Shown: positions 25,039 through 30,853 of the stretch, in pieces
How the letters are laid out: each line of letters opens with the position of its first letter
How positions within the stretch are numbered: the first letter of the stretch is position 1
Sequence record: MW630116.1
Source of the DNA: Escherichia phage vB_EcoM-ZQ3
DNA: 64,000 bases
Direction: 5' to 3' (one strand)
Position numbers and translations under genes: made by a program
The notes under the pieces: model-generated
What the model was told of the DNA's origin: nothing
The model's input: only the letters and a program-made list of their open reading frames with translations
Database searches by the model: none

Positions 25039-25724
<686 letters not shown>

Positions 25725-25800: not shown

Positions 25801-26088
25801 ATGAAAACCTATAAAGAATTTATATCACCTGTTGCTAACGTTTCTACTCTGACCGAAGCAACCCTTACTTCCGAAGTTATTAAAGCAAATAAAGGACGTG
25901 AGGGTAAACCAATGATTAGTCTGGTTGACGGCGAAGAAGTAAAAGGTACTGTTTACTTAGGGGATGGATGGTCTGCTAAGAAAGATGGCGCTACTATTGT
26001 TATCTCTCCGGCTGAAGAGACTGCACTGTTTAAAGCTAAGCATATTTCTGTAGCTCAGCTTAAAATTGTTGCAAAAACTCTTCTGTAA
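25801..26088 (+). CDS. Internal protein with capsid-targeting sequence (ipI position)
   Basis: N-terminal MKTYKEFI with L-x-E prohead-protease-type sites; 95 aa; follows 57B as ipI does in T4. Confidence 0.6.
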   Translation: MKTYKEFISPVANVSTLTEATLTSEVIKANKGREGKPMISLVDGEEVKGTVYLGDGWSAKKDGATIVISPAEETALFKAKHISVAQLKIVAKTLL

Positions 26089-26483: not shown

Positions 26484-26669
26484 ATGAAACGCGCTGAACT
26501 GATTCGTAATGTTGCTGTAGTAATTGCTTCAATGGCTTTTAGTTTTTCGATGTTTGTAGGATTCATTTGTGGACTACTGACGACAACCGAAAACTCTATC
26601 TCATTGGTAGTGGCATTTCTAATCGGCTTAATCGCCATCGTTATGGATAAAATTGCAAAAGGTGAGTAA
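26484..26669 (+). CDS. Small hydrophobic (membrane) protein
   Basis: 61 aa, two hydrophobic helices; promoter cassette and GAGAGGA RBS upstream. Confidence 0.5.
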   Translation: MKRAELIRNVAVVIASMAFSFSMFVGFICGLLTTTENSISLVVAFLIGLIAIVMDKIAKGE

Positions 26670-26670
26670 A

Positions 26671-27033
26671 ATGAAATATCATGTATATGCTGATTTTGAA
26701 GCTAATCCTTCTAAAGACCCTGATTGTCGTTTGTTACGTGAACCGTTTGATTCAGCCACAGAAGCATGGCACTGGATTAAATCTAAATCACCCGGTTATA
26801 TGTTCTTTGAAGTAGTCGATGACAATGGTGCACTGCATCCAGCCCCTACGGAAACTATTAATTTCCTTCTGTTTGCTGGTTATGAATACTATCCTTATGG
26901 TGGTATCGACGACCTTTACGCTAAAGGTAAAACTGTCGAAGCTCTTCGTGAAATATATAAGAACGCTGAAGAAAATTTCGACTGGTACCATATTGTTAAT
27001 GCCCATACCTTTGAAGTGGTGGAACATTCATGA
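26671..27033 (+). CDS. Hypothetical protein
   Basis: ATG overlapping the upstream stop; 120 aa. Confidence 0.5.
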   Translation: MKYHVYADFEANPSKDPDCRLLREPFDSATEAWHWIKSKSPGYMFFEVVDDNGALHPAPTETINFLLFAGYEYYPYGGIDDLYAKGKTVEALREIYKNAEENFDWYHIVNAHTFEVVEHS

Positions 27034-27320
27034 TTCTTTATGCTAAAGTAAAATCTGTTGAGAATGGTTATGAAAGCGATCAGCAAGCAGCTAAAGCATT
27101 GGTCAATGATTACGGTATTTTGACTAACTTTGAAGTTGAAAAAGTTTACATCGACCGTTCATCTTCGCAGGTTAAATTACTCTGGGAAGACGGTAAATTT
27201 AATAGCGTGAATTTTGATTTCTTTATTGAAACAGAAAAAGGTCCTCTTGAATATGATATTTTCAAGAATCCTTTGAAATTACGTTGCATTGAATATAATT
27301 ACATTAATATGGTACGGTGA
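27030..27320 (+). CDS. Hypothetical protein
   Basis: 96 aa; ATGA overlap with the upstream gene. Confidence 0.45.
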   Translation: MILYAKVKSVENGYESDQQAAKALVNDYGILTNFEVEKVYIDRSSSQVKLLWEDGKFNSVNFDFFIETEKGPLEYDIFKNPLKLRCIEYNYINMVR

Positions 27321-27324
27321 GTAA

Positions 27325-27840
27325 ATGAATATTTGTTTAGGCAGTACAATTCCTAAGGGCTACGTAATTGATGTCACTACCTATGAAAATGATGGTGACA
27401 ACTATAAAACCAAAACATTGTTTGAAGTGGAAGAGCATGAGCTCCAACAGTTTAAATATCTCTTGAAGAAATTTAAGAGCCGTCATTCTAGCACTAAAGC
27501 CGAACGTTATTGCGGTAATACACCATTCAGTGATTGTTCGCTTTTAATCTATGAATACTTGGTTGAAGGACTGTTCTCAGACCAGCTTTATCCAGAATTC
27601 ATTAAAAAGGTCTTTGGTATCGAAGTTGACCTTGGTGACAAATCCGAAGAAGATGAAACACGTGTATTCGACCTATTCTTTGAGAGCGGAGATGAGATAT
27701 CTCAAGGACTTATTGATATTCTTGGCTATGCTTCTGAATACTATGATTACGATTTCTTGCGTGTAGTTGAACGTGTTGAATTCGCTTATATTGAAGAAGA
27801 AATTGTTTTGCCGACTGTTAAAATGATTGATTTGCTTTAA
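27325..27840 (+). CDS. Hypothetical acidic protein
   Basis: 171 aa; GTGAGTAA RBS-like sequence upstream. Confidence 0.5.
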   Translation: MNICLGSTIPKGYVIDVTTYENDGDNYKTKTLFEVEEHELQQFKYLLKKFKSRHSSTKAERYCGNTPFSDCSLLIYEYLVEGLFSDQLYPEFIKKVFGIEVDLGDKSEEDETRVFDLFFESGDEISQGLIDILGYASEYYDYDFLRVVERVEFAYIEEEIVLPTVKMIDLL

Positions 27841-27919
27841 GAATTATGTGTTATTATTAATTCATACCCTCTATTACCAAAGGTGCTCTAAAGTGCCTTT
27901 CATAATAGAAAGTTATTAA

Positions 27920-27994
27920 GGCCCTGTAGCTCAATGGGAGAGCTGTCAGCTCATAACTGATAGGTAGCTGGATCGAAACCAGCCAGGGTCACCA
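27920..27994 (+). tRNA. tRNA with CAU anticodon (Met, or Ile if lysidine-modified), CCA encoded
   Basis: Manual cloverleaf: acceptor GGCCCTG/CAGGGTC, D-stem GCTC/GAGC, anticodon loop CTCATAA, T-arm GCTGG-ATCGAAA-CCAGC, discriminator A, CCA. Confidence 0.8.
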
Positions 27995-28000
27995 AACAAA

Positions 28001-28072
28001 TGGTGCATCGTATAAAGGTTATTACGGGGAGCTGTTAACTCCTTTATCTTGGTTCGAGTCCAAGTGCGCCAG
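28001..28072 (+). tRNA. tRNA-Asn (GUU anticodon), no encoded CCA
   Basis: Acceptor TGGTGCA/TGCGCCA, anticodon stem GGGAG/CTCCT with loop CTGTTAA, T-arm CTTGG-TTCGAGT-CCAAG; 6 nt after the previous tRNA. Confidence 0.7.
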
Positions 28073-28117
28073 TAATTTAAACGAAGTAAATTAAGTGCTC
28101 TATCCAAATAATAAATA

Positions 28118-28136
28118 CTCCTATATTTTATAGGAG
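28118..28136 (+). promoter_or_regulatory. Hairpin sequestering the RBS of the downstream endonuclease gene
   Basis: Inverted repeat CTCCTATA-ttt-TATAGGAG; right arm is the SD 10 nt before the ATG at 28147. Confidence 0.5.
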
Positions 28137-28146
28137 ATAATTGGTA

Positions 28147-28812
28147 ATGAGCATTTGTAAACATTGTAATATGGAATTTGATATTTCTAATAAACCTAAA
28201 GGATGGATGGCTAACCACACTAGATGGTGTAAATCCAACCCTAAATTGGAATTGTATAAAGAAAGTTCTAAATCAGCCATTGCAGCAATGAATAAAGCAC
28301 GTATAGCTTCAGGTAATTTAAACCAGTATGTTGTATCTAAAAAGACTGGTGTCCCTGTAGTAATTTCGGAAGAGACTAGACAAAAATTGTCAGCCGCTTC
28401 ATTAGGTAGAGAACACTCTGAGGAATCTAGAATAAAAATATCTAATGCTCGGAAAAAATGGTTGAATGAAAACCCTGATAAACATCCTTGGAAGAAAAAT
28501 ACAAAATTTAAATCTGTGCCTTGTGAATTTTTGAAATCTAAATTAATAGAAAACGGAATTTCATTTATTGAAGAATACCAACCGGTTAAAAACCGAGCGT
28601 ATTGCACGGATATTGCTTTAATAGATAAAAAGATTATTATTGAAGTTAATGGAAACCAACATTACTCCAATCCTAAGAAAAAGATTTTGGCCCCTTATTA
28701 TAAAGAACGCCATGATATTATAAAATCATTAGGATGGGAAATATATGAACTTCATTATGCTGAAGTTTATAAAGAAGATATTGTAAATAATTTAATTGCC
28801 TCTATAGTGTAA
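28147..28812 (+). CDS. Putative free-standing homing endonuclease (N-terminal Cys/His motif, NUMOD3-like repeats, C-terminal Vsr/DUF559-like nuclease motif)
   Basis: CKHCN...HTRWC; ETRQKLSAASLGREHSEESRIKISNARKKW; C-terminal D..IIIEVNGNQHY..RHD...LGWEI; sits between tRNA genes and overlaps tRNA-Arg by 15 nt; no GIY-YIG motif. Confidence 0.6.
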   Translation: MSICKHCNMEFDISNKPKGWMANHTRWCKSNPKLELYKESSKSAIAAMNKARIASGNLNQYVVSKKTGVPVVISEETRQKLSAASLGREHSEESRIKISNARKKWLNENPDKHPWKKNTKFKSVPCEFLKSKLIENGISFIEEYQPVKNRAYCTDIALIDKKIIIEVNGNQHYSNPKKKILAPYYKERHDIIKSLGWEIYELHYAEVYKEDIVNNLIASIV

Positions 28813-28873
28813 TGGATAGCATATAATCGTTCTAAGGTTAATGGTGAGAGTTCAAATCTTTCTAGAGGCACCA
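28798..28873 (+). tRNA. tRNA-Arg (UCU anticodon), CCA encoded
   Basis: Acceptor GCCTCTA/TAGAGGC, D-stem GTGT/GCAT, anticodon loop GTTCTAA, T-arm GAGAG-TTCAAAT-CTTTC, discriminator A plus CCA. Confidence 0.8.
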
Positions 28874-28891
28874 ACTTTAAGTGAGGAAAAT

Positions 28892-29236
28892 ATGAAAGGC
28901 AATATTTATTTGGTAGTTCATGATTTAACGTTTTATTTTAACGAACAGGATACAGTTATTTCCGACCGGTTGATTAATTCGTTATATCAACACGCTGATT
29001 ACGTTTATTTTCAAAATGAATTCGGACATTGGAAGTTTCTTAAAAACCGTTCCGGGTTAACTAGTTTTGAATACTTTGACCGTAAAGACCTTTTAAACGA
29101 AATTCCATTACAACATCGGTTCCAGAAACGCGAATCACTATACTATTGTCGCCATATACCAAATGCTGAATGTGTTTATGAAGCGATTAATCTATGGCGT
29201 CGGCGTCGAGAGCAAATTGATGATATGCCAAAATAA
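28892..29236 (+). CDS. Hypothetical protein
   Basis: 114 aa from the ATG after GAGGAAAA immediately 3' of tRNA-Arg. Confidence 0.5.
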   Translation: MKGNIYLVVHDLTFYFNEQDTVISDRLINSLYQHADYVYFQNEFGHWKFLKNRSGLTSFEYFDRKDLLNEIPLQHRFQKRESLYYCRHIPNAECVYEAINLWRRRREQIDDMPK

Positions 29237-29546
29237 GAAGCCGGGTCGCTACCGGCAAGACGTCGGACTGATGTTCCCTGAGTAAGGATTGGTCTTAATA
29301 AATCTTTACGATTTGTTAATACCCCCTTACATCACAGCAGAAACGGCGCACAGAATTATCGATTCGAGGAAATATCTTTGCCGTAAGCCGAGTAGCGTTT
29401 TTGACGGAACGTTCGGATATGGTCGAGATATGGCCTTTTAAAAATATTGAGTAGCGTCAACTGCTTAATAACCGGGTTCGAATCCCGGCGTTTCGTACAA
29501 ACACTTACCTAGTAGGTGGAAACCCGACAAGGTTGCCGCAAGGCAT

Positions 29547-29575
29547 AGCCCCTTCCGAAAGGTTGGGGCTTTTTT
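29547..29575 (+). terminator. Rho-independent terminator
   Basis: AGCCCC...GGGGCT stem followed by TTTTT. Confidence 0.6.
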
Positions 29576-29576
29576 G

Positions 29577-29584
29577 TATAAATA
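29577..29584 (+). promoter_or_regulatory. Late promoter TATAAATA upstream of the 29620 internal-protein-like gene
   Basis: Exact consensus directly after the terminator, 35 nt upstream of the ATG. Confidence 0.5.
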
Positions 29585-29619
29585 TAGTAAACAATAAACC
29601 TACTTTCTAAGGACCATCA

Positions 29620-30240
29620 ATGTATACTTTTAATGAATTTTTAGCCGAAACGGAAGTAATCACCGAAGCCGGCGTACGTATGACAAAAGAGAAATGGCAA
29701 GCTGCTTACGATGCTATTTCTGGTACAAAAACTAGTACAGAGTTTTTCAAAAACGTTCAAGCCATGTACGGTATCGACACTTCTAGCCAAAAAGAATATT
29801 ACAGAGCTTCTAAAGCATTCAAAGATATTGTTAGTGGTGGTGTTTCTGCTAAATCGGGTTCGCCTAAAGTAAAACCTGCTCCTACCATTCCTAAACCTGC
29901 GACCCCTAAAGCAAAACCTGAGCCTAAGCCTGAAGTAAAAGCAACTCCTAAAGCTCCTGCTCTTAAGTTTGATACTTCTAGCCTGGAAAAAAAATATAAA
30001 CAACTATCTTCGCTTGTTCGTGATATTGAATCCGATACATCTTCACTCGTTCGTGAATTCAATATTCTTCGTAATGGCCAACATATCAACAACCTTGATA
30101 CTCCAGACCTTTATCGTCTTTATTTGACTATCGAAGGTTTGAAGTATACTCAACCACTTCACGATGCGATTAAAGAAAAACTTCGTCAGGCAGGTCGTTT
30201 GGCTGCTGACGCTGCTCAGTATGCAAAAACTCGTAAGTAA
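29620..30240 (+). CDS. Internal-protein-like gene with capsid-targeting-type N-terminus and Pro/Lys-rich linker
   Basis: MYTFNEFLAETE resembles the capsid-targeting peptide; low-complexity PKPATPKAKPEPKPEVKATPKAP region; 206 aa. Confidence 0.55.
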   Translation: MYTFNEFLAETEVITEAGVRMTKEKWQAAYDAISGTKTSTEFFKNVQAMYGIDTSSQKEYYRASKAFKDIVSGGVSAKSGSPKVKPAPTIPKPATPKAKPEPKPEVKATPKAPALKFDTSSLEKKYKQLSSLVRDIESDTSSLVREFNILRNGQHINNLDTPDLYRLYLTIEGLKYTQPLHDAIKEKLRQAGRLAADAAQYAKTRK

Positions 30241-30349
30241 AGAATGGGGACTTCGGTCCCCATTAGGGGGTCTATAACTTACTAAAAAAGTTGTTTACTT
30301 CTTCCCTAGTTGTGTTACTATAGTCCTATTAAAACATGAGGAGAATATT

Positions 30350-30853
30350 ATGAGTCTTTACACTGAACTGAATAAAAAATCTGAAGAATCCGCTGAAACT
30401 ATTTTTAAAAACGTGCAAAAGCGTATTTTAGAAAAGATGTATAACACTGCAGCTAAAGGTGAAAAATCTTGCCGGTTTCCGATGAGGTGTTCTTCCGATT
30501 TATGCGCAAATACTATTGAATGGCTGGAAAGTGAAGGTCTTACGGTAGAGAAAAACCCGGCGTCTTCTATTGACAGTGAATCATATATTAGTATTTCTTG
30601 GGATAAATCAAGGGTAGAAGAGAAAGATGGTGATTGGGTTGTAGATGTTAAAACTTCTGATGGCGGACGTTCTGTTGAAGTTTCAGCTGTAGTTAAAGGT
30701 ACCCACGAACAAAGGACTTGGGGTTGGGGTGGTGAAGAAAAAGAAATTGTTCTTAGTGTGATTGCCAGGTCAACTAGTAATAAAATTGCACAAAGCATCA
30801 TTGACGCTGCAATTGCTGAAGCAGAAAAAATTTGCAAAATTAAAAATAAATGA
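30350..30853 (+). CDS. Hypothetical protein
   Basis: 167 aa; promoter cassette upstream. Confidence 0.5.
   Translation: MSLYTELNKKSEESAETIFKNVQKRILEKMYNTAAKGEKSCRFPMRCSSDLCANTIEWLESEGLTVEKNPASSIDSESYISISWDKSRVEEKDGDWVVDVKTSDGGRSVEVSAVVKGTHEQRTWGWGGEEKEIVLSVIARSTSNKIAQSIIDAAIAEAEKICKIKNK

Follow-up and report, generated by a model that had tools for sequence, protein, structure and literature searches.

A putative Vsr-fold nuclease gene within an exchanged tRNA cassette of Escherichia phage vB_EcoM-ZQ3

A cluster of three tRNA genes was found in Escherichia phage vB_EcoM-ZQ3 (MW630116.1), and an unannotated open reading frame (ORF) for a putative nuclease lies between the second and the third of them. 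The window means here the whole stretch of DNA that was analyzed, 64 kb in length; the tRNA searches covered this window only. Sequence matches of the region identified the phage as RB69-like, belonging to the genus Mosigvirus. The features of the cluster, with the evidence for each, are as follows.

27920..27994, plus strand: CAU tRNA with an encoded CCA end (ARAGORN; Rfam, 59.4 bits)
27996..28869, plus strand: replacement cassette, composed of tRNA-Asn, ORF leader, nuclease ORF and divergent tRNA-Arg (alignments to ATK47)
28001..28072, plus strand: tRNA-Asn (GUU), no encoded CCA (ARAGORN; Rfam, 53.6 bits)
28110..28117, plus strand: late-promoter-like box AATAAATA (7/8 match to the T4 late box TATAAATA), directly upstream of the hairpin
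28118..28136, plus strand: 8-bp hairpin CUCCUAUA-UUU-UAUAGGAG, which in the predicted fold sequesters the Shine-Dalgarno sequence GGAG of the ORF
28147..28812, plus strand: putative nuclease ORF, 221 aa, free-standing, unannotated (Pfam, AlphaFold and PDB fold match)
28798..28873, plus strand: tRNA-Arg (UCU), cassette-type allele with an encoded CCA end (ARAGORN; Rfam, 56.3 bits)

Exactly three tRNA genes, all on the plus strand, were detected by ARAGORN in the whole window. The same three were obtained with Rfam RF00005 (gathering score, 29 bits) at E-values from 1e-8 to 3e-10, and a permissive Rfam scan (E up to 10) of positions 26500-30500 gave no further tRNA-like or degenerate tRNA match. 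The UCU tRNA has a standard cloverleaf. The two programs concur on the three clean cloverleafs (CAU, GUU and UCU) that a first-pass annotation, made from the sequence alone, had placed here; the GUU cloverleaf was accepted by both, and no additional tRNA is present in the window. The same annotation had put the Asn (GUU) species outside the T4 set, and this is right, as T4 has eight tRNAs and none for Asn. Its description of a set reduced in comparison with T4 is correct as a count, three against eight, but misleading as a framing, because the Mosigvirus norm is two. The published totals are eight tRNA genes for T4, two for RB69 and three for JS98 (Petrov et al. 2010, PMC2993671), and no homing endonuclease genes were reported for RB69 (PMC2993671). 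ATK47, AV110 and LNA2, which are all Mosigviruses, have two tRNAs at this locus, CAU and UCU, separated by 3 nt in ATK47 and LNA2. Two tRNAs are the usual Mosigvirus set, and the window has this norm plus one, not the T4 set minus five. The tRNA set itself is ordinary and has already been annotated in the GenBank records of close relatives. What the first-pass annotation had missed is that the 725-bp gap between tRNA-Asn and tRNA-Arg contains the nuclease ORF, and that tRNA-Asn, the ORF and the tRNA-Arg allele constitute one exchanged cassette.

In the alignment with ATK47, the identity ended at 27996, just past the CAU tRNA, and returned at the final bases of tRNA-Arg, ACCAACTT. At the cassette site, the ORF-less relatives have just a 3-nt spacer and their resident tRNA-Arg. 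The tRNA-Arg of the window shares only 57-60% identity with the resident alleles of ATK47 and AV110 and 70% with T4 tRNA-Arg, and the copy in phage ELT1 is identical to it. The resident Mosigvirus Arg gene is replaced, not merely displaced. Eight phages carry the cassette at 99.3% identity or higher: F2, HY126, Mizar, WFL6982, WFK, PTE-Eco05, AV111 and ELT1. The carriers span two genera, Mosigvirus and Tequatrovirus, with flanks that are 80-96% identical, and most relatives are without the cassette. HY126 is identical at 874/874 positions of the cassette and at 92-96.5% in the flanks, and in ELT1, a Tequatrovirus with seven T4-type tRNAs from Gln to Thr, the block from the CAU tRNA to tRNA-Arg is 99-100% identical between flanks of 80-82%. 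This block is a co-converted tract, more similar between carriers (99-100%) than the sequences around it (80-96%). LNA2 is 98.6% identical in the right flank, yet has no cassette. Both borders of the cassette and its exchange between genera are directly visible in these alignments. In PTE-Eco05 (PQ306573.1, 25808-26683), the cassette is 876 bp versus 875, and the match to the ORF is split and annotated as two hypothetical proteins; this 1-bp difference comes from a frameshift in the copy or from a sequencing error.

Presence/absence polymorphism at a collinear locus was seen in Jiaodavirus as well as in Mosigvirus. Among the Jiaodaviruses, which are Klebsiella phages, the ORF-less Hyena has resident-type Arg, Leu and Thr genes, and LilPanda has a divergent Leu gene, the ORF, a cassette-type Arg gene and Thr, with the homology to Hyena returning at Thr. 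The pair is an independent replicate of the replacement. In the Mosigvirus DCP548, a diverged ORF copy precedes a chimeric tRNA-Arg (locus L015, ~2201-2276), in which the first 50 nt are of the cassette type (47/50) and the last 28 nt of the resident type (28/28). The acceptor stem of this tRNA-Arg pairs at 2/7 positions, and the gene was not called by ARAGORN. The chimera looks like the scar of a crossover inside the T-arm, and DCP548 appears to have lost its AGA-reading tRNA by a recombination event. Two other relatives carry deletions at the locus. G2285 has kept tRNA-Asn and the ORF leader, and the segment corresponding to 28144-29209 is deleted. In AV115, the 5' part of tRNA-Asn is joined at the T-loop to the T-loop-like 3' end of the downstream gene rnaC at 29475.

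The product of the ORF has an N-terminal C-x2-C...H-x3-C motif, which is a possible zinc finger, then a NUMOD3-like motif, and a C-terminal nuclease domain of the Vsr/DUF559 type. The Pfam score for DUF559 (PF04480) was 21.4 bits against a cut-off of 20.6, a marginal match only 0.8 bits above it, and those for RAP (23.9; cut-off 24.2) and NUMOD3 (18.9; cut-off 20.4) were both below. No GIY-YIG match in the ORF was found in Pfam, and its PHROGs matches were to families of unknown function and to 'homing endonuclease' families. An AlphaFold model was calculated from 55 homologues with a mean pLDDT of 92.7. By Foldseek, the best fold match in the PDB was 3r3p, the catalytic domain of I-Bth0305I (E 4.6e-4, probability 1.00, TM 0.65 on the target), and it was followed by RAP-domain proteins, DUF559-like 3hrl and E. 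coli Vsr (1cw0, 1vsr). A sequence search of the PDB with either the single protein or the 55-sequence profile gave no significant match, I-Bth0305I and Vsr included. E143, D155, E166, N168, G169 and H172 are invariant in the 55 homologues, which extend down to ~40% identity. The C-x2-C...H-x3-C motif is invariant in six aligned homologues from T4-like phages, and 45-46 of the 55 homologues have C4, C7 and H24. With regard to the EDxHD motif, no other Asp reaches 80% conservation in the 55 homologues, and the fifth residue is not conserved. The T-even 'Hef-type' endonucleases were placed with I-Bth0305I in the Vsr-like EDxHD family (Taylor et al. 2011, PMC3239194). The modelled structure has a nuclease fold and suggests a homing-endonuclease-like protein of the Vsr/DUF559 type, whose membership in the EDxHD family is not proven; the nuclease activity and the homing are putative.

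A homologue of the ORF is encoded in 33 of 50,697 phage records, and in public records the family usually has no label, or is called 'hypothetical' or, mistakenly, 'HNH'. A literature search combining DUF559, homing endonuclease and phage found just one general superfamily survey, and the family is one without a closely related characterized member. Orthology with T4 SegB, whose gene occupies the same slot and also has 221 codons, was considered and rejected, as the best BLASTP comparison with T4 SegB gave an E-value of 2.1.

The association of this family with tRNA genes was examined in ten lineages, namely the window group, PSD2001 (Gaprivervirus), DCP548, LilPanda (Jiaodavirus), PSTRCR_121 (Gualtarvirus), AB-Navy97 (Lazarusvirus) and four metagenomic contigs (100-246 kb). 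In 10/10 of them, the gene is 0-142 nt from a tRNA gene. In four lineages, i.e., the window group, PSD2001, LilPanda and the metagenomic contig L023, it ends exactly 15 nt inside tRNA-Arg, and one of these four overlaps belongs to a distant homologue upstream of tRNA-Arg(CCU). The overlap is in frame from tRNA nucleotide +1 onwards, with the stop codon UAA at tRNA positions 13-15. In the window, the first 15 nt of tRNA-Arg are the last four codons of the ORF (A-S-I-V) and the stop. Because the frame starts at nucleotide +1, cleavage by RNase P at this position of tRNA-Arg would strip the last four codons and the stop from the message, 12 nt before the stop codon.

The leader of the ORF is 88% conserved in LilPanda, together with the ORF, and the LilPanda homologue has a perfect TATAAATA at the same place as AATAAATA in the window, which may serve as a late promoter. 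The predicted RNA fold of 28073-28165 has a free energy of -20 kcal/mol (z = -3.64), and 0/200 shuffled sequences were as stable. A late transcript starting ~6 nt downstream of the box would lose the 5' arm of the hairpin, and the ribosome-binding site would be exposed; only such a transcript, begun inside the hairpin, would lift the block. Expression of the ORF is thus probably held low in two ways, by the hairpin over the ribosome-binding site and by RNase P cutting of the message. A promoter overlapping a sequestering hairpin is a known scheme for T4 (intron) endonuclease genes (PMC2330249), and both controls, including the one by tRNA maturation, were proposed for segB (Brok-Volchanskaya et al., PMC2330249). 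The same regulation may apply here. A scan for sigma-70 promoters and terminators gave counts at about chance level.

The T4 segB cluster is among the closest known arrangements. T4 segB lies between tRNA-Ile and tRNA-Arg, and the ORF has the corresponding slot, behind a CAU tRNA and immediately 5' of a T4-type tRNA-Arg, with rnaD and rnaC following in both. The two genes are free-standing, have 221 codons and a hairpin at the ribosome-binding site, and in both, the 3' end of the message should be damaged when tRNA-Arg matures. SegB drives the inheritance of the surrounding T4 tRNA region (PMC2330249). The proteins themselves are unrelated, SegB being a GIY-YIG enzyme and the ORF product having the predicted Vsr/DUF559 fold. 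T4 also has seven further tRNAs and no Asn, and segB stops just before the tRNA whereas the ORF runs 15 nt into it. I-Bth0305I resembles the ORF product in its order of domains, as far as these are predicted: an N-terminal NUMOD-type DNA-binding region (the NUMOD3 match of the ORF being below the cut-off) and a C-terminal Vsr-like nuclease. However, I-Bth0305I is intron-encoded in recA and has NUMOD2/helix-turn-helix repeats, whereas the ORF stands free in a tRNA cluster and encodes the Cys/His and NUMOD3-like motifs, and there is no detectable sequence similarity between the two.

Two lineages of phage tRNA-Arg(UCU) were distinguished. One never adjoins a nuclease gene (T2, ATK47, SEA1 and Hyena), and the other is always directly 3' of a nuclease gene, which is segB in T4 and the ORF in the window, ELT1, PSD2001 and LilPanda. 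T2 tRNA-Arg is of the resident type and is 81% identical to that of ATK47. The tRNA-Arg of the window has the UCU anticodon, including C35, and its D-loop AAUGGAUA puts A at position 20 as read from the sequence; C35 and A20 are the identity elements for E. coli ArgRS. Compared with the RB69/Mosigvirus set, the window has a CAU tRNA that is 100% identical, the same flanking genes and an AGA-reading tRNA next, but this tRNA is the 57-60% identical Arg allele, and tRNA-Asn and the nuclease ORF are present in addition. The cassette-type tRNA-Arg of the window, PSD2001 and LilPanda has G32 in the loop GUUCUAA, and T4 tRNA-Arg and E. coli argU have C32; a purine at tRNA position 32 is uncommon. The resident tRNA-Arg of ATK47 (locus L002, 2099-2175) and SEA1 (locus L007, 2584-2660) has U19 and A56 (T-loop UUAGAAU), where most tRNAs have G19:C56. 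By our own reading, U19 and A56 are apparently a covarying tertiary pair, and they abolish the SegB core motif GGTTCRANTCC.

The tRNA-Asn of the window has the GUU anticodon, the discriminator G73, U1-A72 and the loop CUGUUAA, all as in E. coli asnT. The GUU anticodon and G73 are the identity elements for E. coli AsnRS. In overall sequence, it is 64% identical to asnT and 54% to T2 tRNA-Asn. The same allele, 100% identical including flanking bases, was found in the Salmonella Gelderlandviruses SEA1 and STP4-a, where it directly adjoins a resident-type tRNA-Arg with no ORF between. Because the ORF occurs without tRNA-Asn in PSD2001 and DCP548, and tRNA-Asn without the ORF in SEA1, tRNA-Asn is a neighbour that was co-transferred in this lineage, and not an obligate cargo. 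T2 also has a tRNA-Asn, so that the gene is not new among the T-even relatives. The T2/T2L region (Met, Tyr, Asn, Arg) resembles the window in the order CAU ... Asn - Arg, with the same small ORF next (see below), and differs from it in the tRNA-Asn allele, in the resident type of its tRNA-Arg and in having no nuclease gene. T2 shows that tRNA-Asn(GUU) belongs to the T-even accessory tRNA pool. The tRNA-Asn of T2L, RB1 and RB3 is the preferred target of SegB (PMC2330249). Equating the tRNA-Asn of the window with this preferred target was rejected, as the T2 allele is just 54% identical. The T-loop GGTTCGAGTCC of the tRNA-Asn in the window matches the published SegB core motif, and the T-loops of the CAU tRNA and tRNA-Arg do not.

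The first-pass annotation had left the CAU tRNA between a lysidine-dependent tRNA-Ile, as in T4, and an elongator tRNA-Met, and the first of these is favoured by C4:G69 and C5:G68, which are the same as in E. coli ileX; metT and metU have U4:A69 and A5:U68. These two pairs are the major identity pairs for E. coli TilS (PMC11947777, citing Ikeuchi 2005). ELT1 and every Mosigvirus examined have a 100% identical CAU tRNA, which shares the acceptor stem GGCCCUG and the 5' half of the D-arm with T4 tRNA-Ile. G27.U43 and C29-G41, as read from the sequences, are shared with ileX, where metT has C27-G43 and U29-A41. Because the TilS identity pairs match the corresponding positions of T4 tRNA-Ile and ileX, the CAU tRNA is most likely of the tRNA-Ile2 type, a lysidine-dependent reader of AUA and the counterpart of T4 tRNA-Ile; TilS of the host would turn C34 into lysidine, with which the tRNA would decode AUA. 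It seems very unlikely that it is an elongator or initiator tRNA-Met. ARAGORN labels it as tRNA-Met, as do the GenBank records of relatives, its overall identity to metT (70%) is about equal to that to ileX (72%), and an unmodified CAU anticodon is the main determinant for MetRS. The four pairs above and the acceptor stem stand against this assignment, and so does the codon usage, in which AUA and not AUG is over-used by the phage. The initiator hallmarks are also missing: the CAU tRNA has G1-C72 and the anticodon stem GUCAG/CUGAU, where E. coli metZ has the C1xA72 mismatch and the run of three G-C pairs, GGG/CCC. The T-loop of the CAU tRNA is unusual in having A at position 54 (GGAUCGAAACC), which, as read from the sequence, breaks the SegB core motif.

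In the 72 long ORFs of the window, AUA was counted 12.1 times per 1000 codons, AGA 8.1, AUG 25.1 and the Asn codons 61.9. AUA and AGA are several-fold rarer in E. coli and are read there by the scarcest host tRNAs. The codon-usage comparison that the first-pass annotation had proposed was made with counted values for the phage, and with background values for E. coli. The CAU and UCU tRNAs fit the classical supplementation for rare codons, as the AT-rich phage uses AUA and AGA several-fold more than E. coli; the UCU tRNA would decode AGA, and with the CAU tRNA would make up for the scarce host tRNAs. The case of supplementation for tRNA-Asn is weaker.

We consider it likely that the locus carries an RB69-type pair of rare-codon tRNAs, in which a mobile cassette with a homing-endonuclease-like gene has swapped the Arg gene and added tRNA-Asn. 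The locus would then be the RB69-type version of the T4 tRNA transcription unit, altered by a mobile element, and the ~875-bp cassette would have replaced the resident tRNA-Arg through gene conversion. The ORF protein most likely cuts ORF-less alleles in or beside the resident tRNA-Arg, and repair from ORF-bearing genomes would copy in the ORF and the neighbouring tRNA genes, so that the AGA reader destroyed by the event would be restored. Both this target and the direction of transfer are inferred. The cassette, with a gene of an unrelated family, would play the part that segB has in T4. Several points weigh against this explanation. The Pfam scores of the ORF are marginal, with NUMOD3 under its cut-off, the link to I-Bth0305I and Vsr is by fold alone at an E-value of 4.6e-4, and the fifth residue of the EDxHD motif is not conserved; the putative nuclease could be inactive or have another role. 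Ordinary homologous recombination between conserved segments of tRNA genes could also move the cassette, with no nuclease involved, and deletions between T-loop motifs do occur at the locus, as in AV115 and G2285. Furthermore, the unit does not require tRNA-Asn, as the separate occurrence of this gene in SEA1 and its absence beside the ORF in PSD2001 and DCP548 indicate, and the E. coli codon frequencies in the comparison are background values.

In a different explanation, the ORF product is a Vsr-like protein that has decayed or been domesticated, and general phage recombination between conserved tRNA sequences spreads the cassette. It would agree with the marginal Pfam scores, with the ORF split by the 1-bp length difference in PTE-Eco05, and with the frequent recombination at T-loop motifs at this locus. 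We regard it as unlikely: the ORF is intact, its acidic and His residues are invariant in the 55 homologues, the regulatory leader is conserved, and the pattern of presence and absence with a tract of high identity is typical of homing endonuclease genes. A plain reduction of the T4 set, i.e., loss of five tRNAs by deletion from an ancestor with eight, with tRNA-Asn incidental and the ORF irrelevant, is likewise improbable. The locus is indeed orthologous to the T4 tRNA region, as seen from trna.3, trna.4, rnaD and rnaC, and deletions at T-loop motifs are demonstrated here by the Asn-rnaC fusion of AV115 and the loss of 28144-29209 in G2285. However, two tRNAs are the Mosigvirus norm (PMC2993671 for RB69), so that the difference is a gain, the Arg gene is foreign with 57-60% identity to the resident allele, and the gained segment is near-identical across genera. 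Finally, the tRNAs of the cassette could be an anti-defence cargo, which replaces or outnumbers host tRNA-Asn and tRNA-Arg cut by tRNA-targeting defences or by colicin-type anticodon nucleases, while the nuclease spreads or amplifies them. SegB-driven amplification of tRNA-Tyr is known to defeat Septu (PMC13096335), the anti-defence genes for Acb1 and IPI are 2-2.6 kb away, and the cassette-type tRNA-Arg has the unusual G32 in place of the C32 of argU and T4. But the loop CUGUUAA of tRNA-Asn is the same as in E. coli asnT, with no resistance change visible, no tandem amplification is present in the window, and AGA is already explained by codon supplementation. This role is quite unlikely in our estimation.

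Under the explanation by a mobile cassette, the accessory tRNA content of T4-like phages apparently changes through shuffling by selfish nuclease genes and not through the tuning of individual genes. Mosigvirus and Tequatrovirus have exchanged a near-identical block, and a broken tRNA-Arg was left in one relative. The set of three tRNAs is routine in itself, and the value of the locus is in the explanation for its presence. A second, unrelated nuclease family in the niche of SegB offers a testable comparison, given the amplification of tRNA by SegB against tRNA-cleaving defences, and the locus also provides a natural example in which a gene for a protein and one for a tRNA overlap on one strand. 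A further and more tentative proposal, which we consider possible, is that a second nuclease family, of the Vsr/DUF559 fold and distinct from SegB, is specialized on phage tRNA clusters, carries its own tRNA-Arg to replace the resident gene that it destroys, and has its expression tied to tRNA processing by the 15-nt overlap. If this were true, each transcript could give rise to a mature tRNA-Arg or to a terminable nuclease message, but never to both, and the family, like SegB, could shape the circulation of accessory tRNAs among T4-like genera, possibly with a use against defences.

The surrounding locus is orthologous to the T4 tRNA unit, with homologues of trna.3 and trna.4 upstream and of rnaD and rnaC downstream. 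The downstream features are as follows.

28892..29236, plus strand: conserved 114-aa ORF of unknown function, homologue of RB69ORF150c (PHROG 3355, E 1.9e-50; ATK47 annotation)
29233..29496, plus strand: homologues of rnaD (species 2, ~29233-29351) and rnaC (species 1, ~29358-29496), 91% identical to T4 over 351 bp

The 114-aa ORF is outside the cassette, after tRNA-Arg, and its T2 homologue likewise follows the tRNA-Arg of T2. rnaD and rnaC complete the T4-type tRNA transcription unit; their coordinates were projected from the T4 alignment and are accurate to about +/-2 nt, and the ATK47 record annotates rnaC. No Rfam family match was obtained for rnaD or rnaC in the Rfam scans, including the permissive one. 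The 3' end of rnaC has a T-arm-like sequence, GGTTCGAATCC, with the motif at 29475, and this tRNA-like T-arm (CCGGGTTCGAATCCCGG) is the recombination partner of the T-loop of tRNA-Asn in AV115. A third exact match to the T-loop/SegB core motif, GGTTCAAATCC, is located at 1700-1710 of the window, far from the tRNA cluster, where ~0.19 matches are expected by chance window-wide and no tRNA was called by ARAGORN or Rfam.

In AV110 (locus L004, 2219-2752), the spacer between the CAU tRNA and tRNA-Arg is 28 nt, the Arg allele is 82% identical to that of ATK47, and an extra ORF of 177 codons directly follows tRNA-Arg; the extra ORF seems to be a further variable insertion at this hotspot. In the metagenomic T4-like contig L022, a second ORF with a faint NUMOD3 match (1502-2155) closely precedes tRNA-Thr and tRNA-Gly, the Vsr-like ORF lies downstream, and two nuclease-like genes seem to share one tRNA cluster there. 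In the window, the anti-CBASS protein Acb1 (Pfam, 197 bits) and the nuclease-inhibitor internal protein IPI (168 bits) are encoded at 25269-25724 and 25801-26088, i.e., 2-2.6 kb upstream of the tRNA cluster. Acb1 is also near the tRNA/nuclease cluster in the metagenomic contig L022 and in the Klebsiella 'Roth' phages.

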